From Escherichia virus KFS-EC, in sequence record MH560358: a stretch of 64,000 nt of DNA. One strand, written 5' to 3'. The notes below the pieces were generated by a model that saw only the letters and a program-made list of their open reading frames with translations, did not search any database and was not told where the DNA came from. Numbering within the stretch: the stretch's first letter is position 1; every line of letters begins with the position of its first letter. The position numbers and the translations under genes were made by a program. Below, one piece after another: positions 1,762 to 39,353 of the stretch.

Positions 1762-1790
1762 ATTATAGGGGATCGGTGATCCCCTGTCAA
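1762..1790 (-). promoter_or_regulatory. sigma70-like promoter TTGACA-N17-TATAAT with palindromic spacer GGGGATCACCGATCCCC
   Basis: Exact consensus hexamers with 17-nt spacer on minus strand upstream of gene 1560-1727. Confidence 0.6.
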
Positions 1791-2906: not shown

Positions 2907-2936
2907 AGTATAGGGGAGTTTAACCTCCCCTGTCAA
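2907..2936 (-). promoter_or_regulatory. sigma70-like promoter TTGACA-N18-TATACT with palindromic spacer GGGGAGGTTAAACTCCCC
   Basis: Minus-strand motif upstream of gene 2693-2872. Confidence 0.5.
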
Positions 2937-2944
2937 CAACTTTT

Positions 2945-3256
2945 TTAAAGTTTTTCCATGATAACGGTCATAATTACATCTTCTGCGCGAGCGGTCAGAT
3001 TATCAGCGTCAGCATGTGGGCGGTTGGTTGTTACAGAGATAACACCGTTGCGCACTGGTTTGATATTGATATCAAGATGATCCGCGAAACGTTCGCCAGT
3101 TACAGAATGAATTTTGGTGTTAAATTCTTTTGCCAGTGCCTTGCGAACTTCACGAATCAGGATAGCGTTTTTCAGTTGGTTCTCCGCGCTCATGGTCTTC
3201 TGGGTGTTCATGGTTCCGTCGAAGTCAATCATTGGCAGCGTTACGATGTATTTCAT
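2945..3256 (-). CDS. hypothetical protein (103 aa)
   Basis: ORF track, ATG start after GGAGAATCAAAA leader. Confidence 0.45.
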   Translation of the reverse strand: MKYIVTLPMIDFDGTMNTQKTMSAENQLKNAILIREVRKALAKEFNTKIHSVTGERFADHLDINIKPVRNGVISVTTNRPHADADNLTARAEDVIMTVIMEKL

Positions 3257-3301
3257 TTTTGATTCTCCGTTTAAGAAAGTGTGTTTCGTTTTGATGTGTG
3301 T

Positions 3302-3330
3302 AGTATAGGGGATACGTGATCCCCTGTCAA
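3302..3330 (-). promoter_or_regulatory. sigma70-like promoter TTGACA-N17-TATACT with palindromic spacer GGGGATCACGTATCCCC
   Basis: Minus-strand motif upstream of gene 2945-3256. Confidence 0.5.
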
Positions 3331-3343
3331 CAACTTTTTTGAA

Positions 3344-3688
3344 TTATTTTTTCATGAGCTTAATGGCTTCTTCCATAGCCAGCACATTTCGATAGTTAGG
3401 GTATCGTGTTAGATCGTCATACATTCGCTTAAGGGTGGAAACTTCCTCAAACTCTGGGTTTTCTAGATACAGTTGAACAAATTGTTTCTCTACCATCTCG
3501 GCTTTTAGCTTGTCTGCTTGTTCCTGTTCATATGATTTCGTTGGACCCAACACCAACAAAATGATAAAGGTGATCAACGGGCTAATGATCAATGATAGGA
3601 TAACATAACCGATAACGCTACGGTTTAAACGGCTTGCATACATGCCTACCAGGAAAACAAAAAGGATATAGATAAACAGAAAGAACAT
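3344..3688 (-). CDS. hypothetical membrane protein (two predicted hydrophobic segments)
   Basis: ORF track; N-terminal FFLFIYILFVFLVGMYA and second hydrophobic stretch. Confidence 0.5.
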   Translation of the reverse strand: MFFLFIYILFVFLVGMYASRLNRSVIGYVILSLIISPLITFIILLVLGPTKSYEQEQADKLKAEMVEKQFVQLYLENPEFEEVSTLKRMYDDLTRYPNYRNVLAMEEAIKLMKK

Positions 3689-3695
3689 ATAATGG

Positions 3696-4169
3696 TTACT
3701 CCTTATTTTCGCGCTCGTACTTTTCGAAATAAAATTCTACTGGCTGGTCATGAATTGACAGCAAGCCAAAGCGTTTAGCCGCTCGCAATCCCATATTGCG
3801 CTGAATGTACTTCTGGAAGTTCTCGCGTATACACTTACGCCAGTATTCTAAGCCCATACAGCTTTTATAAAGATTGCATTGCACACACGCCGGATTCATG
3901 TTATCAAGTATATCATGTTCCGGTTTATGCATTCCTACAACCTTATACTTCCACGATCCATCATCATTACGGGCAATTCGTCCATTTTCATCATAGACTA
4001 CCTTTGAGCGTCGCAATACTGGTTTGATGTGGTCTGCGTGCCAGCGATCCCCTAGTTCCTCGCCACAATAGGCACAGCGTCCACCATATTTCATTTTCAG
4101 GATCTGGCGTTGCTCTTTCTTTGACAATTTTTTAGGTTTAGGGGCTTTCGACCCTTCATTATCACACAT
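3696..4169 (-). CDS. HNH endonuclease (zinc-finger type), putative homing endonuclease
   Basis: CAYCGEEL...HADHIKP...N...CVQCN motif set. Confidence 0.7.
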   Translation of the reverse strand: MCDNEGSKAPKPKKLSKKEQRQILKMKYGGRCAYCGEELGDRWHADHIKPVLRRSKVVYDENGRIARNDDGSWKYKVVGMHKPEHDILDNMNPACVQCNLYKSCMGLEYWRKCIRENFQKYIQRNMGLRAAKRFGLLSIHDQPVEFYFEKYERENKE

Positions 4170-6720: not shown

Positions 6721-7332
6721 TTATTTATATTTCGCGACCTTTGGATTTCTCCGCAGACCGGAATGTATTTGCGCTATACAACAATAAGAAACATTAAACA
6801 TATCAGCTATAATTTGCTTCTTAACTTTTCCTTTAAGCCGCATTATTTCTTCGACTTGCGCATTTGTCAGTTTTGCCCGTGAGTGGTTTTCACCGACATT
6901 GTTATTGAGTCCAGTTCTAAATGAATGTCTCATATTTTCTAGTAAGGTTACTATTTCTAGATTCCACACATAATTGCAGGTTTTTACACCATTGATGTGA
7001 TTAACCTCAAGTCCGGTAACGTCTCCTAGAAATGCATTTGCTACAAGTCGATGTATCTTTTCGGCTTTAACTGAGATTTTACCATTGTCTTTTTGTTTTG
7101 ACAATGTTGAATAATAATATCCATATCGGTCTAAAATTGGTTTTATTATTTTACCAGCACGTTTTTGTTTTACGAGCTTAATATTACCGGGAGAAACTTC
7201 TCTATAAAATTCGATACTTCGGTCAATAGATCTCAATCTACCATAATTAGAGATTTCATACCACGGATAACCTACAGCTTGTCTCCATTCTTCCGGCGCT
7301 GGTAATACGATATTATCATCTTTTGTTTCCAT
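6721..7332 (-). CDS. HNH homing endonuclease with NUMOD4-like N-terminal motif
   Basis: WRQAVGYPWYEISNYGRLRS (NUMOD4-like) followed by HRLVANAFLG...EVNHINGVKTCN (HNH_3); start at internal ATG. Confidence 0.7.
   Translation of the reverse strand: METKDDNIVLPAPEEWRQAVGYPWYEISNYGRLRSIDRSIEFYREVSPGNIKLVKQKRAGKIIKPILDRYGYYYSTLSKQKDNGKISVKAEKIHRLVANAFLGDVTGLEVNHINGVKTCNYVWNLEIVTLLENMRHSFRTGLNNNVGENHSRAKLTNAQVEEIMRLKGKVKKQIIADMFNVSYCCIAQIHSGLRRNPKVAKYK
6722..6729 (-). promoter_or_regulatory. T4-type late promoter box TATAAATA
   Basis: Exact TATAAATA on minus strand about 40 nt upstream of gene 31 start. Confidence 0.4.
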
Positions 7333-7334
7333 TG

Positions 7335-7655
7335 TCAACTACCACCGTAAATTTCTACGATCTGTGCTGGAGTCAGCCCGTCTACATTAATCAGACTATC
7401 AAGCCCAAAACTACGGAAACCTTCAACTGCAATTTCATATACTGGCAAAGATGTTTCTGATTCTTTACGCGGTTTTTCAACATTAGGAACTAACCACTTT
7501 TCGTATGTTTCGAAAGGCATCAGTGCCGGATCTCGCGTGGCGATCATCTCGCGGACAGTACCATCTTTCTTAGTAAACTGCAAAGAGTGAGTACCGACCG
7601 AAAACATTTTCTTTAGTGCTTCACGAAGTGCGATATTATCAATTTGTTCGGTCAT
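7335..7655 (-). CDS. hypothetical protein (106 aa)
   Basis: ORF-track frame; start moved to internal ATG (track start is TTG). Confidence 0.4.
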   Translation of the reverse strand: MTEQIDNIALREALKKMFSVGTHSLQFTKKDGTVREMIATRDPALMPFETYEKWLVPNVEKPRKESETSLPVYEIAVEGFRSFGLDSLINVDGLTPAQIVEIYGGS

Positions 7656-10073: not shown

Positions 10074-11243
10074 TTACCAATCAATCTTATCAGCCGGAAT
10101 CAGTTTCTTATAATTCCGTAGATAGTAAGTTTTCATTGAATCCAGAATACGGTCATAATCAAGACCATCAAATGCAATCATCAGACACATGAAAATATAT
10201 GCTTGTGCATCACCATGTTTACGTGATTCGATAGTCGCATTTGATGCATATGTCTTTCTGTCTTCTCCCGCGTGTGCGTTATAAAATTCTGTTGCTGTCG
10301 TGAAGGCATTGCGAAGAATAGACCTGAATGCTTCCTCGAATAGCTCGATTCTTTCCAGTGCTTCCGGTTCGCCTTCATATGCAGCACGCAAATCATCGGT
10401 TTCGCTTTCTACGACATAGTAGATCAGGTTATTAGGAAACATCGATGTGTTTTTAATGTTATGCACACCAATATACCATTCACTCTTCACTTTGAACAGT
10501 TGACCGTCTTTAGTGCGTGCAACAATTCCTTCGATACCTTCTGCGGTCCGAACTTCGTCAAGAATATTGCTAAAACGCGCTGAATCAACCTGTAACGCAT
10601 TTACCAGATGAGGACGTAGGATTGCGTCAGCAAATAGCATTTGATGCGGTACGTACTCTCCTGTGACGTTATGACGTACATTCAGAAGTGTTAGCGACGG
10701 TTCAGAATATTCTACAACAATTCGGTTGCTGGGCGCTGTATATTCAAAGTTGAAAGTATAATCAGACCCAATATCAGCAATCTTAGCGCGTAGATCCGCA
10801 TACTTCTCTGAATACAGAAGACCGTTTGCTCTCTCTGCCTGGCTTGAGTACAAGGCCGCTTTAGACTTCAACTGAACATAGCCGTTATCAATGTAGGTGC
10901 TTACTAGACTACCGTCCATTTTGTCCATGACCATTTCCACATCTTCCGGCTTAAAGCGAGCGCGATCATTCTCGCCTAAATTAAAAAACTTCTCCATAGG
11001 ACGAGATGCAATGCGGACTGGTCGGTCTTTATCGTCAATTTCAAACATGATCCCGCGACACTCTAACGCATCTGGTTTATTCCACATTTCAGGTTTGCTC
11101 AAGTACAGATAGCTAAAAATGCGCATACGGGTTTGCATCGCCGTAATTTCATCTTTGTAATAGAACGTATCAGATCCGTCACATAGTGCCATCAGATTTT
11201 TGAACAATGCTAAAACTTTTTTGTTGTTTTCTTTTGTTGACAT
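10074..11243 (-). CDS. rnlA: RNA ligase 1
   Basis: Nucleotidyltransferase motif KMDGSLVSTY (KxDG); 389 aa. Confidence 0.8.
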   Translation of the reverse strand: MSTKENNKKVLALFKNLMALCDGSDTFYYKDEITAMQTRMRIFSYLYLSKPEMWNKPDALECRGIMFEIDDKDRPVRIASRPMEKFFNLGENDRARFKPEDVEMVMDKMDGSLVSTYIDNGYVQLKSKAALYSSQAERANGLLYSEKYADLRAKIADIGSDYTFNFEYTAPSNRIVVEYSEPSLTLLNVRHNVTGEYVPHQMLFADAILRPHLVNALQVDSARFSNILDEVRTAEGIEGIVARTKDGQLFKVKSEWYIGVHNIKNTSMFPNNLIYYVVESETDDLRAAYEGEPEALERIELFEEAFRSILRNAFTTATEFYNAHAGEDRKTYASNATIESRKHGDAQAYIFMCLMIAFDGLDYDRILDSMKTYYLRNYKKLIPADKIDW

Positions 11244-11640
11244 AATTTGTGTTCCATTCTGGTTTAAATTTGGTGATCAAAACAGGTTCTTCGATATCGG
11301 CAGTGCTTATAATATCCTTACCTGTTGGATTTTCTATGCACAACTCAAAGCACTGGCGGTAATAGAATGTTACTATCTTCCCTTCCTCTAGCGCCTTATG
11401 AATATTCTTACTCTTGCGAGTATCTGCCGTTGGTGTTTGTCTGTTAATGCTCGTCCGGTAATAATTGATCCGCTTTCTGAGATTGATAGTCTGACCAATG
11501 TATACCAGTTCATCATCAACCGCAATAGCATAAAGAACATTTAAACGGTTTTTCTGAGGAGGTAGAATCACATCACCATCTTTACACTCTAAACATGAAT
11601 ATTTAACGAATCCATAGTTTTCTATTAGCTCATTAATCAT
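11179..11640 (-). CDS. GIY-YIG-like small endonuclease domain protein
   Basis: VLYAIAVDDELVYIGQTINLRKRINYY matches the GIY...YIG...R pattern; 153 aa; 3' end overlaps rnlA start. Confidence 0.45.
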   Translation of the reverse strand: MINELIENYGFVKYSCLECKDGDVILPPQKNRLNVLYAIAVDDELVYIGQTINLRKRINYYRTSINRQTPTADTRKSKNIHKALEEGKIVTFYYRQCFELCIENPTGKDIISTADIEEPVLITKFKPEWNTNYVNKRKQQKSFSIVQKSDGTM

Positions 11641-11690
11641 TATCCTTTCCTCACGTCACAACAAAGGCGGGATTTCTCCCGCCCACCTTA

Positions 11691-12089
11691 TTAACTTTCC
11701 AGAATATCGCGAGCTTCGTTACGATCCTTGATGATTTTCAAGACAAATTCCAGTTTTTCTTTGTTCAGCGTTCCATTTTCCATTGCTTCTTTGACGGTAA
11801 ACACTCCGCCACCTTGCCCGTATACAGTGACAGTGATTTCACCTAACATCGTGGTATGAAAACCGCCAATTTTCGGTGATTCGAAAGAAACAATTACCTC
11901 GCGAACAGTATTACCGTCGTTGATTTCTGAGAGGGTAATGTCGTTTTTGTAGGCGGTTGCTTTAACCATACGGATCAGCATAGTCTGATCTGGGGAGATG
12001 GTCATTTTGTCCATTGTATGTTGCAATGCAGCGTAACCGAAAACTTTAACGAAGTCCAGAACGTCTTTGCGAGTTTGAAATTTAATCAT
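11691..12089 (-). CDS. hypothetical protein (132 aa)
   Basis: ORF track, ATG start after stem-loop promoter. Confidence 0.4.
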   Translation of the reverse strand: MIKFQTRKDVLDFVKVFGYAALQHTMDKMTISPDQTMLIRMVKATAYKNDITLSEINDGNTVREVIVSFESPKIGGFHTTMLGEITVTVYGQGGGVFTVKEAMENGTLNKEKLEFVLKIIKDRNEARDILES

Positions 12090-12122
12090 CTTGATACTCC
12101 TTAGTTGTTTTGGTATGGGAGT

Positions 12123-12151
12123 ATCTTACTACTCCCGTGATATGCTGTCAA
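12123..12151 (-). promoter_or_regulatory. sigma70-like promoter TTGACA-N17-TAAGAT; hairpin GGGAGTAGTAAGATACTCCC (12117-12136)
   Basis: Minus-strand motif upstream of gene 11691-12089; hairpin identical to the one at 1522-1541. Confidence 0.5.
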
Positions 12152-12159
12152 CTGCTTTT

Positions 12160-12309
12160 TTATGCAACCGCAAACATCAACATTTGAACATTCTTGGCTG
12201 TCTGGCTTTCAAAGTTCTGACATTCTTTGATAATGTCCTCTACTTTCTCGCCGGAGATCTCCGCGTAAGTTTCGATTGCCATTTTCAGTACCGCGTCAAA
12301 GTTGTTCAT
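12160..12309 (-). CDS. hypothetical small protein (49 aa), not in ORF track
   Basis: ATG at 12309 after GGAGAATCAAATG leader; TAA at 12160. Confidence 0.3.
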   Translation of the reverse strand: MNNFDAVLKMAIETYAEISGEKVEDIIKECQNFESQTAKNVQMLMFAVA

Positions 12310-12347
12310 TTGATTCTCCTTAAAGTGTATTTCGTTTCGATGGGGGT

Positions 12348-12376
12348 ATATTACTACCCCCGTTTCATGCTGTCAA
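12348..12376 (-). promoter_or_regulatory. sigma70-like promoter TTGACA-N17-TAATAT; hairpin GGGGGTAGTAATATACCCCC (12342-12361)
   Basis: Minus-strand motif upstream of gene 12160-12309. Confidence 0.5.
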
Positions 12377-12595
12377 CTACTTTTTAATGACAAGTTCGAA
12401 TTTTGCTACCTTGCGTCCTCGTTTATTGAAAGCAACCCACGGACGGTTTTCAATGTAGAACAATTCTTCGCCAATAATGAATACTGGCTGATTGTAAAGG
12501 CGACCCATCAGGTCACGCTGGCGAATGGTAGTAGATTCGTATACTTCGCCTACTACAAAGTGCTTGCTGATAGAGTCGGTGCAAGTAAATTTCAT
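12377..12595 (-). CDS. hypothetical protein (72 aa)
   Basis: ORF track, ATG start. Confidence 0.4.
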   Translation of the reverse strand: MKFTCTDSISKHFVVGEVYESTTIRQRDLMGRLYNQPVFIIGEELFYIENRPWVAFNKRGRKVAKFELVIKK

Positions 12596-12628
12596 TTTGA
12601 TTCTCCTTTGTTTCGTTTCGATGGGGGT

Positions 12629-12658
12629 ATATTACTACCCCCGTTATTCAGTGTCAAC
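12629..12658 (-). promoter_or_regulatory. sigma70-like promoter TTGACA-N18-TAATAT; hairpin GGGGGTAGTAATATACCCCC (12623-12642)
   Basis: Minus-strand motif upstream of gene 12377-12595; hairpin identical to 12342-12361. Confidence 0.5.
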
Positions 12659-12664
12659 TACTTT

Positions 12665-12883
12665 TTACTTGTTGTATTCATTCCACCATTGGGTTAGCTT
12701 ATCAATTATTTTTGTGTTTCTATCCAACTTCTCCCACCGTTTTCTAGGGTTTATCAACCGGAATAGGTAAGGTGTACTTGTTAAGTGAACTCGGTCAATG
12801 TAGTGATTGATGTACTGCTTTTCGATTCTAAGTTTCATCTTTTTACGATGAAAATATGCAATGACTTGTTCTTCTGTTTCCAT
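12665..12883 (-). CDS. hypothetical protein (72 aa)
   Basis: ORF track. Confidence 0.4.
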   Translation of the reverse strand: METEEQVIAYFHRKKMKLRIEKQYINHYIDRVHLTSTPYLFRLINPRKRWEKLDRNTKIIDKLTQWWNEYNK

Positions 12884-12905
12884 ATGTTCCTCCGTTTCGA
12901 TGTGT

Positions 12906-12934
12906 ATTATGCTATGGCAAGATCAGATTGTCAA
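12906..12934 (-). promoter_or_regulatory. sigma70-like promoter TTGACA-N17-CATAAT
   Basis: Minus-strand motif upstream of gene 12665-12883. Confidence 0.45.
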
Positions 12935-12944
12935 CACCCAATAA

Positions 12945-12969
12945 CAAAAAAGTCGCCACTATGGGCGAC
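12945..12969 (-). terminator. rho-independent terminator, hairpin GTCGCCCATAGTGGCGAC plus T6
   Basis: Directly downstream of the HAD-like gene stop on minus strand. Confidence 0.55.
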
Positions 12970-12981
12970 TTTGAACAAACA

Positions 12982-13458
12982 TTAATCATGACCGTGATTT
13001 GCAATATCCGCTCGCGTCTTATCTTTGTGATTTCCTACGTCAAAGACACGATAACCATTTTCACGCAAAACTTTAATCACTTCTGGGTTATCCTCAAAGA
13101 CTCCGACAACTTCATCTTTATCAAAGGATTTAATTACCTCTAATTTGATGTGATAGTCTTTACGGGAATCGGTACGGCCTCTCATAAAGATTTTATCAAA
13201 ACACACCCCGTTAGAAATTAACCAATCAATTGTTTCCATGTAAGCATGTGAACTTCGTCCGGTGAGGATGTAAATCAAATGCCCGTTGTCTGAAAGAGCA
13301 TTAATAACACGAATTACATCGTAAATGGGGGAATCTCCCCCACATGCCTTGTTATATTCGATCCATGACTCGACTTTATCAAGATTTTCGGTTGGCATCT
13401 TTGCTAGTCGATGTGTTGGATCTGTGATCGTAAAATCTAAATCGACAAAATATATCAT
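12982..13458 (-). CDS. HAD-superfamily hydrolase/phosphatase-like protein
   Basis: N-terminal FVDLDFTIT (DxD motif); 158 aa; ATGA overlap with nrdB. Confidence 0.5.
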   Translation of the reverse strand: MIYFVDLDFTITDPTHRLAKMPTENLDKVESWIEYNKACGGDSPIYDVIRVINALSDNGHLIYILTGRSSHAYMETIDWLISNGVCFDKIFMRGRTDSRKDYHIKLEVIKSFDKDEVVGVFEDNPEVIKVLRENGYRVFDVGNHKDKTRADIANHGHD

Positions 13459-14618
13459 AGATATTTCCCGAATCGGTTGTAGTCTTCGTCTGTTAAATCG
13501 GTATTAACCTGAGATACCAGATACATAATCTCTACTTCCTGCGCTGCATTCTGTACTTCGTCAGAGTTCAACCATTTACGCATCCACGGTAACGGATGAC
13601 GACGAACACTAAACGGGCTTTTCAGTCCGGCAGCACGCATACGGGAATCTGCCAGGTATTCTACATAGGTTTTCAGAATTTCCGGTGACAAGCCAGGAAT
13701 TGCCCCCATTGCGAATAAGTGATCTACCCATTCTTTTTCTTGCTCGACAACATCCAGAAAGATTTTCGTTGCTTCGCCTTCAAGTTCTTCCGCAATCTGT
13801 TTCCACTCATCACCATCAGCCCCCGTTTGCCATTGACGAATAATGTATTGTGTTCCTTTTAAGTGAAGTTGTTCATCACGCGCAATAAATTTCATGATCT
13901 TCGCGTTACCTTCCAGCAAACCACGTTCGGCAAAGCTGAAAGTACATGCAAAAGACACATAAAAACGGATTGCTTCCAGTGCATTAACGCAATGCATACA
14001 CAGATAGAGTGAGTCCATCAGATTGCGTTTAGTTTCTTCCACGTACGAAATGCTATCAGAATATGCATCAAGGTCAAATTCATTTTCAGAAGAACGACTA
14101 AAACTTTCTTTAGCGTCCTCGTATTCACGGATTTTCACCAGAACATCATCATAATATTGCCCGATAGATTCCGCTCGCTTCATGATAGCAGGGTTATCGA
14201 TGATCTGGTCGAACTCACTAGCCGGATCAATGAAACAGTTACGCATAATGTGTGTATAGCTTCGGCTATGAATCGTTTCGCTGAATGTCCATGTTTGCAA
14301 CCATGTATCGAGAGTTGGATCAGATACAATTGGACCAAATGCTGCGGACGGTGCGCGACCTTGAATAGAATCAAGTAATGTCTGATACTTCAAGTTTTCA
14401 GTAAAGAAACGCTTTTCAACGTCACCCATATTAAGATATTGAATGCGGTCGGTTGCAAGTGAAATTTCTTCTGGACGCCAGAAAAATGACAGAGATTTTT
14501 CAATTAATTCTTCAAATACTTGATGACGCTGAATATCATAGCGAGCGATACCCAACCCACTACCCAGAAACATCGGTTCGTTCATAATATCAACATGTTC
14601 GCGGTTAAATACGCTCAT
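13455..14618 (-). CDS. nrdB: ribonucleotide reductase small subunit (class Ia)
   Basis: 387 aa; adjacent to nrdA; continuous ORF. Confidence 0.9.
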   Translation of the reverse strand: MSVFNREHVDIMNEPMFLGSGLGIARYDIQRHQVFEELIEKSLSFFWRPEEISLATDRIQYLNMGDVEKRFFTENLKYQTLLDSIQGRAPSAAFGPIVSDPTLDTWLQTWTFSETIHSRSYTHIMRNCFIDPASEFDQIIDNPAIMKRAESIGQYYDDVLVKIREYEDAKESFSRSSENEFDLDAYSDSISYVEETKRNLMDSLYLCMHCVNALEAIRFYVSFACTFSFAERGLLEGNAKIMKFIARDEQLHLKGTQYIIRQWQTGADGDEWKQIAEELEGEATKIFLDVVEQEKEWVDHLFAMGAIPGLSPEILKTYVEYLADSRMRAAGLKSPFSVRRHPLPWMRKWLNSDEVQNAAQEVEIMYLVSQVNTDLTDEDYNRFGKYL

Positions 14619-24510: not shown

Positions 24511-25092
24511 TCATCCTCTTTTTGGAAAATTTAAATAAGCATACTCGCCAACTATTTCATGTGCTGCACGGTCATAAGCCTTAGCCGCCTCAACTTCTGT
24601 CTCAAAGTATCCTAGATGTATATTCTTTCGATTGATAACAATATACGCCTTCCACGGCTTTTTCTTGCTTGGTGATAATGATACACCTTTATATTTGCTA
24701 TGGCAAGCCTTTTTCTTTGAGACGTTAAACTGATTTTGCTGTTCGGTTGCTTCTCTCATGTTTGACGGTCTATTGTTAGTTTTGTCTTGGTCTATGTGAT
24801 CTATTCGTTCAACCTGAGTACCATACTCTAAAAACCAGACAACTCTATGTACAAACAGATTAAGTTTATGACCATTGTTGTAAAATGTAAAGTATAAATA
24901 TCCTTCTTTATGGAGACATACCCTTACCACATCACCTTTTTTGTATATGGACCCTTCTTTTCGGAATCCAGCAGCTACAGAATCCTTTAAATGGTATAAT
25001 ATTCCATCGACATGATAGAATCTACCTTTTATCGCTTTCTGTGTCTCGATATCCCAAAATTTTGTTTTTGCCACAACAAACACCACACACAA
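24511..25092 (-). CDS. HNH homing endonuclease with C-terminal AP2-like DNA-binding domain
   Basis: HRVVWFLEYG...IDHIDQDKTNNRPSNMREAT (HNH_3) plus YKGVSL...WKAYI...LGYFETEVEAAKAYD (AP2-like). Confidence 0.7.
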   Translation of the reverse strand: MCVVFVVAKTKFWDIETQKAIKGRFYHVDGILYHLKDSVAAGFRKEGSIYKKGDVVRVCLHKEGYLYFTFYNNGHKLNLFVHRVVWFLEYGTQVERIDHIDQDKTNNRPSNMREATEQQNQFNVSKKKACHSKYKGVSLSPSKKKPWKAYIVINRKNIHLGYFETEVEAAKAYDRAAHEIVGEYAYLNFPKRG

Positions 25093-25126: not shown

Positions 25127-28100
25127 ATGGCAGATTTTTCTCAACATTTCAAGGCCACCTTTGGCTTTGACGCTGGTAATGAAAAGGTCGTCAATGTAGC
25201 ATACGCAGATAAAAACACATCAACGGATGCGGTCAACGTTGAATTTTTCAATTACCATAATGGTATTACTCAGTATGACACAACTCGCGGTTATGATCAA
25301 TACGGAACTACAATCTATCAAAACCGTCCGTATTATGCAAAAGAAGATATCACAAAGCCAGCAGGTGATTTTGACCCGACTAAATGGCAAGCACTGCGCA
25401 CGGACCCACGTTGGGATTATATTGCAGCAACTTCCGGTGATACTCCTTTAAAGTCTGGTGATTATATCGCAGCAGATGGTCAATTTGCAAACTTGACTTT
25501 CTCGATGCCAACTAAACCAGCAGAGGGAGACACTATAACAGTAAAAGATATCGGTGGCAAGTGTGGTGTTAACGAATTATCGTTCTTGAGTTCAGGACAT
25601 GAGTTTTACCATAACGGTAATGTGTATAACCGAAAATGGTATTGCACTACCCCGTATGCAATGAACTATTTCATCTTTGTTCGGAATCGTTGGCATGTTT
25701 ATCAGACGGGAACAGAGCCGCGCGGTGTGTACGCACAGCCAGCGATTGATGCTATTCAAATGCAGAATGGTGATCAGGTATTTCGTCGTAGTTCGTTGGG
25801 TAATATTACCTTAGTGCTTCCTAAGTTTGCCAACAATGGCGACATGATCCAGACTACAGACCTTGACGGATTAACCGCAACCAACCACGTTACGGTTAAA
25901 GTTCATGAGCACGCAGAAGAACAATCAATTGGCACGTCCGGTCTAAAAGAGATTATTGGTAAGCGTAGCGGTCATGGTGTATTCATCTTTGACAAGACGG
26001 AAAACTTATGGCGTTTGTGGGATGGTGATCAGTCTGTTCGTCTTAAACCGATCATCGATGACACTCGCTTGCAACCTAATAGCTATGTTGCTGTATTTGG
26101 TGGTCGTGATGTTACTCTGACGCTGCCAACCAATGTCGAGCCGGGTGATCGTATTCAAGTTTCTATGCAGTATATGCACGGAAACCAGAATTGCCGTATT
26201 ATCACCCCCACAGAGGATACAAAAATCCTTATGCCGAAAAACATGGTTCAGTTTCCGAAGCGTAGCGAGTACCCATTCAACGGGACCGACACATGGAAGG
26301 AAGTGTCTGAATTGTCGTTCAATGCGGCTAGTGATTATGTACCTTATCTGGAGTTCTCTTATTCAGAAGGTGATGATGGTAAGAAATACTGGTTGGTGGC
26401 ACACGCTCATCCGATCGTAGAACGAGTAGATCCGACTCGTAAAGCGCGTGTCGGTGTAATTGCACTGGCTACCCAGACTGAAACGAATAAAAACCATGAA
26501 GAGAATCCTAGCGACGAAGTTGCAGTAACACCAAAAATGCTGGCTAATAAAACAGCCAACGAAACTCGACGCGGTATTGCTCGCATTGCGACTCAAGCGG
26601 AAACGCATCAAGATACTGGTTCCAACTTCATGGATGATGTTATCGTTACGCCTAAAAAGTTAAATGACTGTGTTGCTACCGAAGCCCGTCGTGGTGTGAT
26701 GGAAATTGCAACCCAGCACGAAACCAATGAAGGTTTAGACGATACCCGCGCTATTACTCCTAAGAAATTAGAAGAACGTCGCGCTTCCGAAGATTTAGCT
26801 GGTATTGCTGAAATTGTTCAGGCTGGCGGTAGTGCTGCCGCTCGACGTGGCGAAGCTGGTACAGGGATCTATAACATCAACGACCATGCTAAAATTGTTA
26901 CTCCACAAAACATCAACGAAGTCAAGGCGACAGAAACTTCCCGTGGTGTTGGCTATCTGGCAACTGACGCGGAAGTGCAAGGGGCTACAGAATCAACCCC
27001 GCAAGATGCTTTACTAATCACGACTCGCACGCTAACGAAACGTACTGCTACCGAATCGCGCACTGGTATCGCTGAAATTGCAACCCAGGAAGAAACAAAC
27101 TTAGGTCAAAGTGATAACCATATCATCACGCCTAAAAAGCTGCATACTCGCCGCGCAACGGAAACTTTACATGGTTTAGCAGAAATTGCAACTCAGCCGG
27201 AATTTGATGCAGGTCTTGATGATGCTCGCATTTCTACCCCATTGAAGATTAAAACCTTCTTTGAGAATGCACAGCGTTTGAAAGTAGATCCGACTCAGGG
27301 GCTTAACCTTACTGGTGATTTGTGGCAAGGTATCATGATCAGCGGTCTGGATGCAACCGAAGACACAAAAGGTGTCGCTAAAGTTGCTACTACTCAGCTT
27401 ACGGATGCTGGTCAAGATGATACTACAATCATCACGCCTAAAAAGCTGCAAGGCAAAAAAGCCACCGAAGGTAAAGAAGGTATTATCCGCGTTGGTACTC
27501 AAGACGAAACCGTCGCTGGTACTATGGACAATGTAGCAATTTCGCCTAAAAACTTCAAATATGTTGTTCAGACAGAAGAAACATGGCAAGCAACGGAAGC
27601 CCGTCGCGGATTCCTGAAAGTAGCAACACAAGAAAACTGTTTTGTTGGTGATAATCTGCAAGGTTCTACTCAAGAGCTTGATGAATATCAGCATGATGGG
27701 ATTGCGGTAACTCCGAAAGGATTAAACTACGCACTTGCTAATTTCTTACCTAAAATGGCAACCGCTCAGAATAGTTTGAAATTGGGTAACGTAGAGGCCG
27801 CTAAATGGGCGCGTAGAGACATTGACCAGACCATTGAGAGCAATTACACGTTTAATAAAAACGTTAACTTGAAGGGCGATTTAGAGTGCTTAAAATCCGG
27901 TTCCTTTGAAACTCTGTTTGTGACTAAGAACTCGACTGACGATCCGAGTAATGGTCATCTGGTATTGGGTGAGCGTGGAGTTGACGGTCACACCGGAATT
28001 ACTCTGCATGGCACAACCTTGTCAGAAGGTATGGAAAACTCATGGTCTATTATCGTTGGTGGTACTGGAACGGCGCAAGCAGTTAATAGTGATGCTATCG

Positions 28101-28867
28101 CTTTCTGTAAGATTGACGATTCTGGATCTGTTGAGCATTATGCCTTTGCTATGGAACGTGACGGCGATGCGTTAGCATATAGAGACTTCATAGCAGGTCG
28201 TAACCTGTATGCGAAACAAGGCGGTTTATATATTGTAGACCACGCCAATCCGGCAATGACTCGCTCTACAGACGGTATGTTGAATATCGGTCACGGTGGA
28301 AGTGTTAACATCAAAGCCGGTTATCAGAATCTGACTACAGAGATCGCAGGACAGAAATACCAGATCGTTCACGCAGGAAACGCAGACGAAGTTCTCGACC
28401 GTCAGTTTGTCAAGAATGCTGGCGATACGATGACCGGAAAGCTGATTATGGATAATGCGCCTATTGTTTCTGTTAAGCATGAGGCTATCGCGGCAACCGC
28501 TCCGGCAATCGGTAACATCGGTTTCTGGAACATGCGAGTAACTACCCAAAACATCAAAGAAACCTATCCAGAGAAGAAAAACGGCACATTGATGCAATGG
28601 GGTACTGATGAAAACGGCCTTACCCAAATCTGGTCGCCTGATGGTACTCATAAGCATTATATCCGTTCCGGTACAGATGGTCAATGGACCGCATGGGGCG
28701 AAATTTACACCAAACAGAACAAGCCTACCGCTCAGGAAATCGGGGCAGTTGTTGCCGAAGGTGGATTGATGAACTCTATGACGGTTCGTGACTGGATCAA
28801 GGTTGGTAATGTTAAAATTATTGCCAATAATCTGACTCGTACCGTAGATTTTATCTGGGAAGACTAA
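25127..28867 (+). CDS. 34: long tail fibre proximal subunit
   Basis: 1246 aa; repeated ATE-RRG-IAEIATQ motifs; first gene of the plus-strand tail-fibre module. Confidence 0.85.
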   Translation: MADFSQHFKATFGFDAGNEKVVNVAYADKNTSTDAVNVEFFNYHNGITQYDTTRGYDQYGTTIYQNRPYYAKEDITKPAGDFDPTKWQALRTDPRWDYIAATSGDTPLKSGDYIAADGQFANLTFSMPTKPAEGDTITVKDIGGKCGVNELSFLSSGHEFYHNGNVYNRKWYCTTPYAMNYFIFVRNRWHVYQTGTEPRGVYAQPAIDAIQMQNGDQVFRRSSLGNITLVLPKFANNGDMIQTTDLDGLTATNHVTVKVHEHAEEQSIGTSGLKEIIGKRSGHGVFIFDKTENLWRLWDGDQSVRLKPIIDDTRLQPNSYVAVFGGRDVTLTLPTNVEPGDRIQVSMQYMHGNQNCRIITPTEDTKILMPKNMVQFPKRSEYPFNGTDTWKEVSELSFNAASDYVPYLEFSYSEGDDGKKYWLVAHAHPIVERVDPTRKARVGVIALATQTETNKNHEENPSDEVAVTPKMLANKTANETRRGIARIATQAETHQDTGSNFMDDVIVTPKKLNDCVATEARRGVMEIATQHETNEGLDDTRAITPKKLEERRASEDLAGIAEIVQAGGSAAARRGEAGTGIYNINDHAKIVTPQNINEVKATETSRGVGYLATDAEVQGATESTPQDALLITTRTLTKRTATESRTGIAEIATQEETNLGQSDNHIITPKKLHTRRATETLHGLAEIATQPEFDAGLDDARISTPLKIKTFFENAQRLKVDPTQGLNLTGDLWQGIMISGLDATEDTKGVAKVATTQLTDAGQDDTTIITPKKLQGKKATEGKEGIIRVGTQDETVAGTMDNVAISPKNFKYVVQTEETWQATEARRGFLKVATQENCFVGDNLQGSTQELDEYQHDGIAVTPKGLNYALANFLPKMATAQNSLKLGNVEAAKWARRDIDQTIESNYTFNKNVNLKGDLECLKSGSFETLFVTKNSTDDPSNGHLVLGERGVDGHTGITLHGTTLSEGMENSWSIIVGGTGTAQAVNSDAIAFCKIDDSGSVEHYAFAMERDGDALAYRDFIAGRNLYAKQGGLYIVDHANPAMTRSTDGMLNIGHGGSVNIKAGYQNLTTEIAGQKYQIVHAGNADEVLDRQFVKNAGDTMTGKLIMDNAPIVSVKHEAIAATAPAIGNIGFWNMRVTTQNIKETYPEKKNGTLMQWGTDENGLTQIWSPDGTHKHYIRSGTDGQWTAWGEIYTKQNKPTAQEIGAVVAEGGLMNSMTVRDWIKVGNVKIIANNLTRTVDFIWED

Positions 28868-31803: not shown

Positions 31804-34566
31804 ATGGCAGATTTAAACAGAATCCAGTTTAAACGCACTAGCGCAGCCGGACGTAAACCGGATGCTGGTACGATGAATCCGGGAGAGTTGGCAATTAACT
31901 TAGCAGACCAATATCTGCTTACAAAAAATGATGGTGGGCAAATTGTTAATTTAAGCTGCCCTCCAGTTTATGACAAGAGCGTTAATGTAAAAGGTCGTGT
32001 GGTTGCAGATGACCTTATGTGGAGTAATACCGCAAACTATTTCGATGACCCGACCGCACGAAATCTTGATAAATTTGGGGCATTTCGTACTAATGATATG
32101 GATGGTCATCTAGCACTTGCTTTGCATATTCCCCATCCTAGCGGTATAAATCATGCTCGTGGGTTTGATTTTACTTATGGTTCTAACGTTGTTCCTACTG
32201 TAAAAACCTATGGTTATAACGCTGATGGTGTATTGGCATATTCATATCGCATGTATCACGAAGGTGATAAGCCTAGTCCGTCAGAATTAAATGTATACAG
32301 CAAACAAGAAGTAGACCGGATGTTCCAGAAGACCATCAACTTTGGTGTAGAAACTGGATGGTTTAAAATTGCTACCGCCTTTATTCCGCAAAATGATGGA
32401 CGTAGCTTGAAAATTAGATTGATTGGTGGAAGTGGGTGGAACGTAGGACAAACTGGACAATGTAATATTATTGAACTTGTTATAAGGACTAGCAACGGTT
32501 CGCCTAAAGGAATTAACTTTGTTGCGTATCATCATGTTTCTGGTTACGAAAATCAATTTTGTGCCATTAATACAGGTGATGACACTTATGATATCTATGC
32601 ATATTACTTCGAATTTACTAATATGGTAATGGCTGAATATCAAGCGTCCAGCGGTGTTAATTTAACTGTACTTGATCGACCTGAATATGTCGGCGAAAAA
32701 CCTGTAGCTGATCATATCTATGATGCATATACAATATACTCCTTTAACAGTTTCAGTAACCGTGGAACGTTAAATTTTGCTGGAAACCCTCAAGGCCAAT
32801 ATGACATTGAGCATTTGAACGTGCAACAAACTAACAGCAAAAAGATGTTGCGTCGCTTCCGTAGTTCTGGTCCTGCCACTATCTGGCATGAGACAGTTGA
32901 TGATAACCAGTATCGTCTTGCTACTGGATACGAAGATACAAATCAGGAATTATTGCTGACAGCAACATCCGGGTTACATGTCAAGAAATTAACATTGGAT
33001 GGCGGTGTCACTGGAAATTCTGGTATTGATATTCGTCGAGGACCAAACGAATCAAGCCATTTTAATTTCATGGATTATCGCACTGGACAAGATGTTCGTA
33101 ATGGTTGGTTTGGTTTTGGTGATGGAACAACCAAAGATTTTATTTGGTGGAACGATAACGGTCAAAACTCTATAAACCTGATTGAAGACGGTGAATTACA
33201 TATTACTGGCGGTAGAGGCCAGAAAATTGTAATGAATAGCGAAGTTGCATTATCTGAAAATGCTCGTTTGGCTGTTAAAGGTGGCAATTATGGCTTAATT
33301 TTTAGAAATGATGGCGTTGGCTTCCATATTCTTACCACAGATCTCGGTGATTCATTTGGACCGTGGAATACTCGTAGACCATTCAGCTATGATTTTGCGG
33401 ACGGTGGATTGTATTTAGGTGGTACTGCAACCGCTCGTTGTTTGCATCTGGGAATTGATGGTAGCACTCGTCTCGAAGACAACCTTTTCTTTAAAGCTGG
33501 TTCTCGTCAATCTATGGACTATATGGAACTAGTCCATTGGGGGGCAAGCAATACAGGTCGAAATAACGTTTTAAGTCTTCGTGACTCAAAAGGATTTTTC
33601 GCAGAATTTGAACGATTGGGTGATGATACCATTAAAAACACCTTCTTCGGGAAACTTAAAGTTAATCGTGGTTCTGACGCAATCGTCATGAATGCCGAAA
33701 CGGGTGATTCGTCTATATATTTGCTGGGTACTTGTGCTGATAATAACAACTGGTATATCGGTAAAGGTGGTGCTGATAATGGATTAGCGTTCTATAGCTA
33801 TGCTACTAATGCTGCTATCAATATTACAAACGCTGGTGATATCGCGCTAAGTCCAAAAGGTGTCGAAATGACTCATGTCAATAACGTTCGATTCTATGTT
33901 CATGGTGAACGTTGGACTGCTAGCCAATCTGGAGGCTGGGGCGATCAATGGGGATTAGAAGCGCCGATATTTGTCGATCATGGTTATGTTGGACCAGATA
34001 GCTATTATCCAATTATTAAAGGAAGAAGTTTAATCACCAATCAAGGGTATACAACTGCCGTCGATTTTGGTCTTCGTCGTGTTCCTCAAAATTGGGGGCA
34101 AGCTATTATTCGTGTTGGATCTGCGGATGCATCGCCAGCGGCTGGTCATCCTCAAGCTGTATTCGAGTTCCATCATGATGGTACTTTCTATTCTCCTGGT
34201 AATGGTAACTTTAACGATGTTTATATTCGTTCCGATGGTCGTCTGAAAATTAATGTTGAAGATTACGAAGAAAATGCGGTGGATAAGGTAAATAAACTCA
34301 AAGTTAAAACCTACGATAAAGTTAAATCTCTTAATGACCGAGAAGTTATAGGTCATGAGATTGGTATTATCGCACAGGATTTACAAGAGGTATTACCGGA
34401 AGCTGTTAAAACCGCAAAAATTGGTGGTCTTGATAACCCAGAAGAAATTTTAACAATTTCAAACTCCGCAGTGAACGCGCTTTTAATTAAAGCGGTCCAA
34501 GAAATGAGCGAAGAAAATAAACTTCTTCGTGAACGTCTTGCTGCAATTGAAGCTAAATTAGGGTAA
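31804..34566 (+). CDS. 37: long tail fibre distal subunit with C-terminal chaperone-like domain
   Basis: MADLNRIQFKRTSAAGRKPDAG...GELAINL N-terminus; 920 aa; C-terminal SDGRLKINVE...GIIAQDLQEVLPEAV...coiled-coil tail. Confidence 0.85.
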   Translation: MADLNRIQFKRTSAAGRKPDAGTMNPGELAINLADQYLLTKNDGGQIVNLSCPPVYDKSVNVKGRVVADDLMWSNTANYFDDPTARNLDKFGAFRTNDMDGHLALALHIPHPSGINHARGFDFTYGSNVVPTVKTYGYNADGVLAYSYRMYHEGDKPSPSELNVYSKQEVDRMFQKTINFGVETGWFKIATAFIPQNDGRSLKIRLIGGSGWNVGQTGQCNIIELVIRTSNGSPKGINFVAYHHVSGYENQFCAINTGDDTYDIYAYYFEFTNMVMAEYQASSGVNLTVLDRPEYVGEKPVADHIYDAYTIYSFNSFSNRGTLNFAGNPQGQYDIEHLNVQQTNSKKMLRRFRSSGPATIWHETVDDNQYRLATGYEDTNQELLLTATSGLHVKKLTLDGGVTGNSGIDIRRGPNESSHFNFMDYRTGQDVRNGWFGFGDGTTKDFIWWNDNGQNSINLIEDGELHITGGRGQKIVMNSEVALSENARLAVKGGNYGLIFRNDGVGFHILTTDLGDSFGPWNTRRPFSYDFADGGLYLGGTATARCLHLGIDGSTRLEDNLFFKAGSRQSMDYMELVHWGASNTGRNNVLSLRDSKGFFAEFERLGDDTIKNTFFGKLKVNRGSDAIVMNAETGDSSIYLLGTCADNNNWYIGKGGADNGLAFYSYATNAAINITNAGDIALSPKGVEMTHVNNVRFYVHGERWTASQSGGWGDQWGLEAPIFVDHGYVGPDSYYPIIKGRSLITNQGYTTAVDFGLRRVPQNWGQAIIRVGSADASPAAGHPQAVFEFHHDGTFYSPGNGNFNDVYIRSDGRLKINVEDYEENAVDKVNKLKVKTYDKVKSLNDREVIGHEIGIIAQDLQEVLPEAVKTAKIGGLDNPEEILTISNSAVNALLIKAVQEMSEENKLLRERLAAIEAKLG

Positions 34567-34604
34567 TTGGAAAGCGGGGAGAAATCTCCGCTAAGGATTC
34601 TTAT

Positions 34605-34928: not shown

Positions 34929-35087
34929 TTGGGGACAGATCCATTCTTGTATTGTGCCGCAGGGAGTAACGATCACGGTAACTACAAACAGGGGTATTTC
35001 CCATCTTCGTTATAGACGCTTGAGCAACCGTTAAAAAAAGAATTAAGGAAAACTCCCAGGGAAGGGAACTACTAAGGAGAAACGGCT

Positions 35088-39324: not shown

Positions 39325-39353
39325 AGTATAGGGGATCGCCGATCCCCTGTCAA
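39325..39353 (-). promoter_or_regulatory. sigma70-like promoter TTGACA-N17-TATACT with palindromic spacer GGGGATCGGCGATCCCC
   Basis: Upstream of gene 39138-39293. Confidence 0.5.

Follow-up and report, generated by a model that had tools for sequence, protein, structure and literature searches.

PeSL promoter/stem-loop repeats of the RB49/phi1 type frame an array of small ORFan genes in Escherichia virus KFS-EC

The small genes located between a pnk-like gene (ORF229) and denA in Escherichia virus KFS-EC form an array of PeSL cassettes, a type of element already known for the RB49/phi1 group (2006-2010). The definition of PeSLs, as promoter/stem-loop repeats mediating cassette shuffling, comes from RB49 and phi1 (Arbiol et al. 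2010, PMC2839356), and the statement in the initial annotation that such "promoter early stem-loop" cassettes have been reported as mobile in some T4-type phages was correct. The window, i.e., the whole 64,000-nucleotide stretch of DNA that was analysed (record MH560358), derives from an RB49-like Krischvirus (98.4% DNA identity to RB49 over 3 kb), and the four ORFan genes of the array (ORF228, 227, 226 and 225) correspond to RB49p225-228 and to phi1 ORF225-228. We consider it very probable that the array is an ORFan array framed by PeSLs, with sigma70 starts, hairpins present only in read-through transcripts that insulate the cassettes partly, and repeats that provide homology for recombination. 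Host sigma70 RNA polymerase would initiate at every module early in infection, while the hairpin would be transcribed only by polymerase reading through from the upstream gene. Its RNA would most likely attenuate read-through or stabilise the 3' end, leaving the cassettes partly insulated, and two flanking canonical terminators would delimit the whole array. The repeats of approximately 80 nt would act as homology patches for phage general recombination, by which whole promoter-plus-gene cassettes could be deleted, inserted or swapped. The elements of the array, in the order of transcription, are as follows.

12949..12972, minus strand: intrinsic terminator 3' of the pnk-like ORF229, opening the array; 9-bp stem AAAGTCGCC/GGCGACTTT followed by TTTGTTATT
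12906..12934, minus strand: promoter 4, TTGACA-N17-CATAAT, without an internal hairpin; RB49 Pe:132299
12665..12883, minus strand: ORF228, 72 aa, ORFan, predicted to be driven by promoter 4
12589..12667, minus strand: PeSL228/227 repeat; -35 at 12657-12652, -10 TAATAT at 12634-12629; RB49 Pe:132020
12642-12623, minus strand: PeSL228/227 hairpin GGGGGTA-GTAATA-TACCCCC; predicted +1 A at 12622, GGAG Shine-Dalgarno, ATG at 12595
12377..12595, minus strand: ORF227, 72 aa, ORFan, in a 281-bp cassette
12308..12386, minus strand: PeSL227/226 repeat; -35 at 12376-12371, -10 TAATAT at 12353-12348; RB49 Pe:131739
12361-12342, minus strand: PeSL227/226 hairpin GGGGGTA-GTAATA-TACCCCC; predicted +1 at 12341
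12160..12309, minus strand: ORF226, 49 aa, in a 225-bp cassette
12083..12161, minus strand: PeSL226/225 repeat; -35 at 12151-12146, -10 TAAGAT at 12128-12123; RB49 Pe:131514
12136-12117, minus strand: PeSL226/225 hairpin GGGAGTA-GTAAGA-TACTCCC; predicted +1 at 12116
11691..12089, minus strand: ORF225, 132 aa, ORFan, final gene of the array
11666..11683, minus strand: intrinsic terminator at the far end of the array; stem-loop GGCGGGA-GAAA-TCCCGCC, then TTTGTTGTG

All of these elements (four promoters, three promoter/hairpin repeats of about 79 nt and two bounding terminators) lie on the minus strand. A module comprises approximately 70-80 nt: an A-rich tract holding the upstream gene's stop codon, then TTGACA, a 17-nt spacer and TAATAT or TAAGAT, a 7-bp G/C-rich hairpin overlapping the -10 element, a CA(+1)T start, a purine-rich leader of 27-37 nt, a GGAG Shine-Dalgarno sequence and the ATG. 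As in published PeSLs, AT-rich tracts with a stop codon precede the -35 element (...AAGTAAAAAGTAG-TTGACA, ...ATTAAAAAGTAG-TTGACA and ...CATAAAAAAGCAG-TTGACA; the -35 element of PeSL227/226 lies directly 3' of the ORF227 TAG stop), and the modules end in a Shine-Dalgarno sequence and start codon (AAGGAGAATCAAAATG, AAGGAGAATCAAATG, AAGGAGTATCAAGATG and ACGGAGGAACATATG). The repeat copies are 62-80% identical over about 79 nt, and besides the hexamers they have similar A-rich tracts, hairpins, leaders and Shine-Dalgarno sequences. The initial annotation had placed a promoter with a perfect 7-bp hairpin over the -10 element upstream of 11691-12089, 12160-12309 and 12377-12595, and a fourth promoter at 12906-12934 together with a terminator, and all of these were found. 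Other details required revision: the spacer, given as 17-18 nt, is 17 nt in all four promoters and never 18; the units, given as about 250-280 bp, are spaced by 225 and 281 nt between repeats, with the fourth promoter 277 nt from the next -35 element; a fourth small gene (12665-12883, under promoter 4) had been missed beside the three listed; and the array is bounded not by one terminator but also by a second one at 11683-11666. The terminator at 12972-12949 and promoter 4 together make a composite terminator-promoter, a configuration of the PeSL subclass whose stem-loop precedes the -35 element, and the promoter 4 leader has CATCGAAAC in common with the other modules.

The array maps one-to-one onto earlier predictions for RB49 when coordinates are converted (window coordinate = RB49 coordinate - 119349). 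Nolan et al. (2006; additional files 3 and 6 of PMC1524935) had predicted early promoters as well as rho-independent terminators for RB49, and Pe:131514, Pe:131739, Pe:132020, Pe:132299 and two TransTerm terminators in their lists match ours. The opening terminator is orthologous to 132303-132320 ("ORF228c<--ORF229c"), and the closing one is 131015-131032 ("denA<--ORF225c"). That study differs in listing the promoters without mention of embedded hairpins or of the repetition of the module. The identical four promoters and two terminators are annotated in the GEC-3S GenBank record. The proposed transcription of each cassette from its own promoter is supported by the sequence and by experiments with other PeSL copies, namely, a lacZ fusion for PeSL206/205 and down-mutations for 193/192, which showed promoter activity in vivo (PMC2839356), and mapping of early transcript 5' ends in RB49 is said to agree with the promoter consensus (PMC1524935). 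A literature search on Krischvirus transcriptomics found nothing relevant.

The perfect 7-bp stems of the three internal hairpins (GGGGGTA/TACCCCC twice and GGGAGTA/TACTCCC once) place them in the published subclass "overlapping the -10 box" (class A): loop and 3' arm span the -10 element and the C-rich discriminator, the stem finishes at -1, and a CAT with the A at +1 is conserved downstream. Since the stem ends at -1, the hairpin is absent from the cassette's own mRNA. A C-rich -3 to -1 region has been reported for RB49 promoters (PMC1524935), in agreement with this end point. The initial annotation had asked whether the hairpin acts in DNA (spacer) or in RNA (leader); the geometry settles that it is part of the promoter DNA and of the preceding gene's 3' UTR and lies outside the leader of its own cassette. 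The pairing itself is conserved. In 23 distinct class-A sequences, 161 of 161 core cells were standard pairs, and one pair covaried (AU in 15, GC in 6 and GU in 2); within the array, the PeSL226/225 stem has an A-T pair where the other two stems have G-C, the change in one arm being compensated in the other. A wider census yielded 35 perfect stems with many differing, compensated arm sequences. Among stems with a single internal non-Watson-Crick pair, counted when at least 2 Watson-Crick pairs were present on either side of the mismatch, 9 had G·T or T·G and 1 had A·C (binomial p of about 0.02, for 10 sequences that are incompletely independent). Twenty-one apparent "C·A" mismatches were rejected as artefacts of extending a stem by one mismatch and one outer A-T pair. 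Adding the rest of an RB49 genome to the census (14 modules) gave no additional imperfect stems, so the G·U statistic was not strengthened. This bias toward G·U-type pairs hints at a function of the hairpin at the RNA level in read-through transcripts; alternatively, it could stem from strand-biased mutation (C>T and A>G on the non-template strand) or from chimeric recombinants. An attenuating role of the RNA may be inferred from the compensatory changes together with this bias. An Rfam scan of 11000-13600 at E<=1 matched no family.

If each hairpin were a full intrinsic terminator, the four genes would be strictly monocistronic and fully insulated. We regard this as possible but unlikely. Every internal hairpin does sit 25-35 nt downstream of the preceding stop codon, and the stem-loop of PeSL211/210, inserted between a promoter and lacZ, cut expression about as much as rrnB T1 (PMC2839356). 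The hairpin assayed there was, however, of class B, located between the -35 and -10 elements (as is that of PeSL206/205), and because this is the sole published terminator assay, a terminator function of class-A hairpins is an extrapolation. In addition, the three internal hairpins lack a U-tract: the bases next to the stem are AUCGAAAC or AUACCAAA, and the sequences that follow the three hairpins read ATCGAAAC, ATCGAAAC and ATACCAAA. Judged as GC-rich hairpins followed by a U-tract, the two flanking hairpins (TTTGTT...) are canonical terminators and the three internal ones are not, and TransTerm called the flanking ones only (PMC1524935). The internal stems are also just 7 bp long, and the whole intergenic region folds with about -14 kcal/mol (z of about -2).

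The claim that the cassettes are shuffled was borne out by a comparison of 57 Krischvirus records, in which some phages lack ORF226, ORF227 or ORF228 or carry something else in its place. The 225-bp ORF226 cassette is missing in 13 of the 57 records and the 281-bp ORF227 cassette in 2 (ELT3 and AV108), while ELT4 and E26 carry, in place of ORF228, a cassette of two ORFs unrelated to it; the 77% coverage of 011D4 shows the same pattern as E26, judged by coverage alone. A search of the window for the source of the ELT4/E26 cassette (blastn and tblastx) matched the PeSL parts only. The breakpoints of the ORF226 and ORF227 losses and of the ORF228 replacement in ELT4 and E26 lie inside the repeats, and each deletion of ORF226 or ORF227 leaves exactly one hybrid repeat. 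The crossover that removed ORF226 maps to the -35 region in phiS and to the leader in JSE, JK32 and UPWr_E1, and a further crossover position at the locus lies after CATCGAAAC; the locus thus displays at least 2 independent crossover types. Window-wide, about 16 unique indels were found, 7 with both ends and 3 with one end in promoter modules. These modules make up 9.7% of the sequence, i.e., breakpoints are several-fold enriched in them. Recombination at the repeats is shown comparatively, by a comparison that is blind to deletion versus insertion and to homologous versus site-specific exchange.

The same crossover positions bear on the idea that the hairpin acts in DNA, as a cruciform or as a site for a phage protein, and thereby directs recombination to the PeSLs or modulates the promoter. 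The construction of the class-A element is in favor of this idea, with the hairpin built into the promoter, the -10 element in the loop and a C-rich discriminator, and an orthologous site carries a 19-nt palindrome with a reverse-complemented loop (ACC versus GGT), which is a DNA-level event. Against it, stems of 7 bp with loops of 6 nt are poor cruciform formers. The excess of G·T-type over A·C pairs in imperfect stems also argues against it, because a G·T on one strand is an A·C on the other, so that a cruciform would suffer equally from both mismatches. Arbiol et al. speculated that a recombination protein that binds DNA may recognise the GGGG...CCCC motif, and one of their mini-circle crossovers mapped within the hairpin loop (PMC2839356). 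The crossovers at our locus, however, are scattered over the -35 region, the leader and the position after CATCGAAAC, which fits general homologous recombination rather than a fixed site, and no integrase or recombinase has been reported in RB49 or phi1 (PMC2839356). We consider an action of the hairpin in DNA rather improbable. More specifically, the Gn-loop-Cn hairpin could be the site of a dedicated phage recombinase, with integron-like site-specific cassettes in a virulent phage and encapsidated mini-circles as transfer vehicles; the variable crossover positions and the G·U bias pointing to RNA weaken this reading, which we hold to be highly improbable.

Another explanation would leave the repeats without any role in mobility, as strong promoters under selection, and assign the indels to unrelated illegitimate recombination. 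Consensus elements do explain part of the similarity, and about 6 of the 16 indels in the window are away from promoter modules. Those indels, however, have explanations of their own, as they involve HNH homing endonuclease genes, a homing-endonuclease gene beside nrdB (in JSE and phiS) and tail-fibre mosaics. Moreover, the similarity extends beyond the hexamers to the full length of the repeat, every deletion at the locus left one hybrid repeat, breakpoints are enriched in modules, and mini-circles with chimeric PeSLs were found by inverse PCR and sequencing for ORF192 and ORF210 by Arbiol et al. (PMC2839356). We consider this explanation very unlikely.

The elements also exceed what chance would produce. 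Strong sites (TTGAC[AG]-N16-18-TAnnnT) numbered 46 on the minus strand of the window and 2 on the plus strand, and 100 dinucleotide-preserving shuffles gave an expectation of 4.3 +/- 1.9 for the minus strand. Of the 46 sites, 11 contain a perfect GC-rich stem, 7 bp or longer, in the interval from -35 to +1; no such site arose in any of the 100 shuffles. Every one of these 11 promoter-embedded hairpins is on the minus strand, and 14 more were counted in the remainder of an RB49 genome; 51-52 PeSLs per genome have been reported when all subclasses are counted (PMC2839356). A lax consensus promoter scan showed no enrichment (22 found, 18.9 expected). The signal consists of the near-consensus sites, their strand bias and the embedded hairpins. 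As a negative control, IMG/VR was scanned with an anchor on the promoter and 5' arm only, and the 112 stretches obtained were mostly chance matches. Pairing of the 3' arm was bimodal, with 1-4 of 7 pairs in chance matches and 7 of 7 in Krischvirus copies. The scan also gave a few additional Krischvirus copies. A chance likeness, in which AT-rich phage DNA yields promoter-like hexamers and short hairpins, would agree with the near-expected outcome of the lax scan, but the excess of strong sites, their strand bias, the embedded hairpins and a repeat family kept across 57 genomes leave it a negligible probability.

The products of the small genes gave few clues. Searches with the four ORFs found no match in Pfam and families of unknown function only in PHROGs, and ORF227 and ORF228, both 72 aa, showed no similarity when their sequences were compared by reading. 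ORF226 has distant homologs in two unrelated phages, CSP1 of Cronobacter and vB_AsaM-56 of Aeromonas. The possibility that a PeSL accompanies them was rejected, as none is present there; the CSP1 homolog begins 10 nt after its neighbouring gene.

In genus, module architecture, subclass, ORFan hyperplastic setting and association with cassette indels, the array agrees with the PeSLs of RB49 and phi1, from which it differs in nothing essential: we found near-consensus sigma70 promoters, polyG/polyC stem-loops, repetition on the minus strand and breakpoints within the element. Five placements of the stem-loop, with its polyG/polyC arms, with respect to the promoter are distinguished among PeSLs (PMC2839356). 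The ORF225-228 locus was left undiscussed in that study, as all four genes are present in RB49 and in phi1 alike, and the functional tests there used copies 193/192, 206/205 and 211/210. Composite promoter/stem-loop repeats beside variable small genes, implicated in exchange, are also present in T4/PST and KVP40/nt-1 (Comeau, Arbiol & Krisch 2014, PMC4122927), and promoter/stem-loop repeats likewise flank variable small genes at the internal-protein locus of T-even phages (Repoila et al. 1994, cited in PMC2839356). With different promoters (TTTACW... or TTGYVH...) and stems (AGNA-loop-TCNT or A3-4G3-loop-C3T3-4), these elements are analogous to the RB49-type Gn-loop-Cn element but not homologous to it. 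Lambdoid morons (Hendrix et al. 2000) similarly place a small accessory gene with its own promoter and terminator between resident genes, but no conserved repeats flank them, and their insertion is attributed to illegitimate recombination. Integron cassettes also combine a small accessory gene with a recombination site, and circular intermediates have been proposed for PeSLs too; integron cassettes, however, have no promoter and depend on the action of IntI on folded attC, whereas the cassettes of the array carry their own promoters. The tyrosine-recombinase integrase and fixed crossover point of an integron have no known counterpart here, with crossovers at several positions within the homology of about 80 nt.

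The new results, namely, the cassette losses in 57 records, the hairpin geometry and the G·U bias, are modest and incremental, and they leave the classification unchanged. The exclusion of the hairpin from its own transcript, the absent U-tracts and the G·U bias narrow the question of the stem-loop toward an RNA role in read-through and away from a DNA recombination signal. The polymorphism of ORF225-228 is visible only with the 57 records now at hand, and with at least 4 cassette-level events with repeat junctions, the locus supports the 2010 model, for which two genomes had been the basis. PeSLs are a published explanation for the exchange of small accessory genes among T4-type phages that leaves adjacent transcription units unharmed.

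The array (within 11640-13000) lies between a pnk-like gene (ORF229) and denA, in a stretch of the window (10-15 kb) in which every gene is on the minus strand. The three small genes, fourth promoter and terminator described in the initial annotation were all recovered, but a fourth gene and the closing terminator had been omitted. The resulting layout is as follows.

12982-13458, minus strand: HAD/PNKP-phosphatase-like (pnk-like) gene (Pfam HAD_PNKP)
12972-12949, minus strand: flanking hairpin with a 9-bp stem and a T-run, just past the end of the HAD/PNKP-phosphatase-like gene
12934-12906, minus strand: promoter 4, TTGACA-N17-CATAAT, recognized from sequence
12883-12665, minus strand: ORF228, 72 aa
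12595-12377, minus strand: ORF227, small ORF
12309-12160, minus strand: ORF226, small ORF, 49 aa
12089-11691, minus strand: ORF225, small ORF
11683-11666, minus strand: second hairpin with a T-run, end of the array
downstream of the 11683-11666 hairpin, minus strand: denA (GIY-YIG), then rnlA

The longest rnlA ORF (10074-11243) runs 65 nt into the end of denA (11179-11640); its true start is uncertain because some related records annotate an rnlA of 1119 nt versus 1170 nt. A further perfect hairpin, GC-rich and 7 bp long (TGGGGGA-GAT-TCCCCCA, 13326-13342, minus strand), with TTTACG directly 3′, is embedded in the pnk-like coding sequence (12982-13458).

A 79-nt repeat fills all three intergenic spaces (12083-12161, 12308-12386 and 12589-12667); its copies are 62 to 80% identical and are spaced 225 and 281 nt apart. 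Each copy contains TTGACA, followed after exactly 17 nt (not 17 to 18 nt, as first annotated) by TAATAT or TAAGAT, and a perfect 7-bp stem with a 6-nt loop, which reads GGGGGTA-GTAATA-TACCCCC in two copies and GGGAGTA-GTAAGA-TACTCCC in one. The proposed succession of promoter, hairpin and small gene was thereby confirmed. The hairpin dominates the intergenic RNA folds (-13 to -14 kcal/mol, z -2.0 to -3.2). Promoter-embedded hairpins of the window form two classes. Class A hairpins begin 15 nt past the first -35 base and overlap the -10 (-35 at 12657, 12376, 12151, 39130, 39634 and 1556), while class B hairpins run from the last -35 base to the first -10 base (-35 at 39353, 3330, 2936, 1790 and 15201). 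At its 5′ end, a promoter-early stem-loop (PeSL) module comprises the upstream stop codon within an A-rich tract, then the -35 and the hairpin with the -10; a C-rich segment (-6 to -1) and CAT follow, the A of which is the predicted +1 (7 nt past the -10 in class A). The leader is purine-rich (CGAAACGAAA or CAAGACAA), and the module ends with the near-invariant GGAGAATCAA(A)ATG, which includes a GGAG Shine-Dalgarno in all four cassettes (12884-12892, 12599-12607, 12313-12321 and 12094-12101) and in most other PeSL modules. The T4 RegB endoribonuclease cuts at GGAG, and a divergent regB is present in RB49 (review PMC3014915); early mRNAs with this Shine-Dalgarno may be RegB targets.

A strict scan of the window for TTGAC[AG]-N16-18-TAnnnT returned 46 sites on the minus strand versus 2 on the plus strand, an extreme window-wide strand skew of strong sigma70-type promoters; the same pattern occurred 4.3 ± 1.9 times in 100 dinucleotide-preserving shuffles. 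Between -35 and +1, 11 of the 46 strict sites enclosed a perfect GC-rich stem (7 bp or longer), compared to none in the 100 shuffles. The long plus-strand ORF at 25127-28867 is situated within a promoter-poor stretch, which should correspond to late tail-fibre genes, judging by synteny with JSE and phi1.

Sequence variation indicates that the pairing of the hairpin is under constraint. An IMG/VR scan was anchored only on TTGACA-N9-GGGNGTAGTA and the 3′ arm was left free; chance matches had 1 to 4 of 7 complementary bases, and Krischvirus copies had 7/7 (15 copies) or 5-6/7 (3 copies). Among 23 distinct class A sequences, all 161 core cells contained standard pairs, and one pair covaried (AU 15, GC 6, GU 2). 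A census of the window and parts of six genomes yielded 47 distinct hairpins, 35 of them perfect, with many different compensated arms (e.g., GGGTGTAT/ATACACCC, GGGGATAT/ATATCCCC and ATGCGGTTATT/AATAACCGCAT).

The 3′ arm ends at -1 of the module's own promoter, so that RNA started there lacks the hairpin, which is present only in read-through RNA of the upstream gene, 25 to 35 nt past the stop codon. The best reading is that two true terminators bound the array and that the internal hairpins would act as partial attenuators or 3′-end-stabilising structures for the read-through RNA. Their context speaks against the internal hairpins being classical terminators themselves: the three are followed by AUCGAAAC or AUACCAAA in place of the T-runs that mark the two flanking hairpins, and TransTerm predicted the flanking hairpins only. 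The hairpin might instead work in DNA, as a cruciform or a duplex protein site. Single internal non-Watson-Crick pairs, however, were G·T or T·G in nine cases versus A·C in one (two-sided binomial p 0.02, in a small sample of partly non-independent sequences); since a sense-strand G·T corresponds to an A·C on the opposite strand, this asymmetry favours sense-strand RNA pairing. Strand-biased mutation could also produce the G·T excess, as could chimeric recombinants, exemplified by PeSL228/227 (between ORF228 and ORF227) of RB49, phi1 and ECD7 (GGGGGTA-GTAAGA-TACTCCC). A hairpin-directed, site-specific cassette recombination system is highly improbable, since crossovers vary in position and the imperfect pairs are biased towards G·U, and a function as RNA leader of its own cassette, raised earlier, is ruled out by the arm ending at -1.

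Comparison with related genomes bore out the suspicion of shuffled cassettes, with ORF226 or ORF227 missing, ORF228 replaced, and junctions in the modules. A sensitive blastn search of the phage collection with 11641-12981 as query gave discrete coverage classes, representatives of which were aligned. The 225-bp ORF226 cassette (window 12297-12165) is missing in JSE, UPWr_E1 and phiS; the alignments on either side overlap by 87 to 95 nt on the relative, implying that one hybrid repeat was left. ORF226 is absent in 13 of 57 records, in agreement with tblastn matches in 44. The crossover lies within AGTTGACAGCAT (-35 region) in phiS and in the leader, between +1 and Shine-Dalgarno, in JSE, JK32 and UPWr_E1, which points to at least two independent events. 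The 281-bp ORF227 cassette (window 12590-12387) is missing in ELT3, where one repeat is left in the alignment, and AV108 has the same blastn coverage pattern; ORF227 was detected by tblastn in 55 of the 57 records. In ELT4 and E26, the ORF228 body (window 12893-12667) is swapped for about 351 nt (ELT4 locus L004, reverse complement 1291-1641; E26 locus L005, reverse complement 2150-2500) with two unrelated 55-aa ORFs (MKTLTYRQACNMAKKNKG... and MKEQRWYFRAEGNLYIINHW...), neither of which matched any part of the window. The left junction is directly past CATCGAAAC of promoter 4, and the right one coincides with the beginning of the following PeSL, which has a further hairpin variant (GGGAGTAT-TGCATA-ATACTCCC). 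The leader of the replacement cassette resembles that of the ORF226 cassette (92.5% over 40 nt). Blastn coverage of 011D4 (77%) equals that of E26.

The window differs from JSE, Phi1, phiS and JK32 by about 16 unique indels of 60 bp or more. Promoter modules, which make up only 9.7% of the window, contain both ends of seven of these and a single end of three others. Two indels not bounded by modules are explained by free-standing HNH homing-endonuclease genes.

6721-7338, minus strand: NUMOD4+HNH_3; missing in JSE, Phi1 and JK32
24511-25092, minus strand: HNH_3+AP2; missing in JSE, Phi1, phiS and JK32

Another is a homing-endonuclease gene adjoining nrdB in JSE and phiS, and further ones are mosaic segments at 32324-35035, probably within plus-strand tail-fibre genes by synteny with JSE and phi1. 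The three remaining non-module indels are near 2675, at 2962-3709 and at 38310-38660.

Hairpins also differ between orthologous modules. The 19-nt palindrome of PeSL206/205 reads AGGGGATC-ACC-GATCCCCT in the window (1767-1785, minus strand) versus AGGGGATC-GGT-GATCCCCT in RB49 (locus L009, 2700-2760), the loop being reverse-complemented. Both orientations were seen at several loci in several genomes, and the inversion points to flipping of the hairpin or to gene conversion among PeSL copies. At PeSL210/209, the window (2912-2931) and JSE carry AGGGGAG-GTTAAA-CTCCCCT, and RB49 carries AGGGGATC-ACC-GATCCCCT (L009 3850-3890); the flanks are conserved despite the different hairpins, and here the hairpin itself is swapped between copies.

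ORF225 to ORF228 have no Pfam domain and belong to PHROGs of unknown function, and no Rfam family matched the array region. Distant homologs of ORF226 (12160-12309) occur in the unrelated Cronobacter phage CSP1 (62% identity) and Aeromonas phage vB_AsaM-56 (50%) (homolog loci L126, 701-850, and L127, 701-838). The CSP1 homolog belongs to an operon, follows its neighbour at a distance of 10 nt and lacks a PeSL; the region matched in vB_AsaM-56 has no gene annotation of its own. This distribution is evidence that the ORF is horizontally distributed, moving among phage groups independently of a Krischvirus-specific PeSL frame.

The array region shares 98.4% identity with coliphage RB49 and matches 57 records, all RB49-like phages and Krischvirus in each one inspected; the four small genes are RB49p225-228 and phi1 ORF225-228. 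RB49 early promoters Pe:131514, 131739, 132020 and 132299 and TransTerm terminators 'denA<--ORF225c' and 'ORF228c<--ORF229c' have been listed (Nolan et al. 2006, PMC1524935). With an offset of 119349, they coincide exactly with the four promoters of the array and its two flanking terminators; the same elements are also annotated in the GenBank record of phage GEC-3S. Repeated promoter/stem-loop motifs (51-52 per genome) were termed PeSLs and divided into five subclasses, one 'overlapping the -10 box'; promoter activity of PeSL206/205, a terminator-like effect of the PeSL211/210 stem-loop, and ORF192 and ORF210 circular molecules with chimeric PeSL junctions were demonstrated, and modular shuffling via PeSLs was proposed (Arbiol et al. 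2010, PMC2839356). Comeau et al. 2014 extended this concept to the phage pairs T4/PST and KVP40/nt-1. The initial annotation's comparison with such cassettes in T4-type phages was exactly right, and PeSLs were defined in the very group of phages that the window comes from. The assayed RB49 modules PeSL211/210 (AGGGGAT-CACGT-ATCCCCT, window counterpart at 3330) and PeSL206/205 (window counterpart at 1790) both carry class B hairpins; the three hairpins of the array are class A. What the window holds here is a standard array of PeSL cassettes from an RB49-like phage, published previously and therefore already known. To this, the present analysis adds the polymorphism of the locus across 57 genomes, with independent crossovers, and a hairpin that lies outside its own transcript, lacks a U-tract and displays a G·U bias, all of which leave the classification unchanged.
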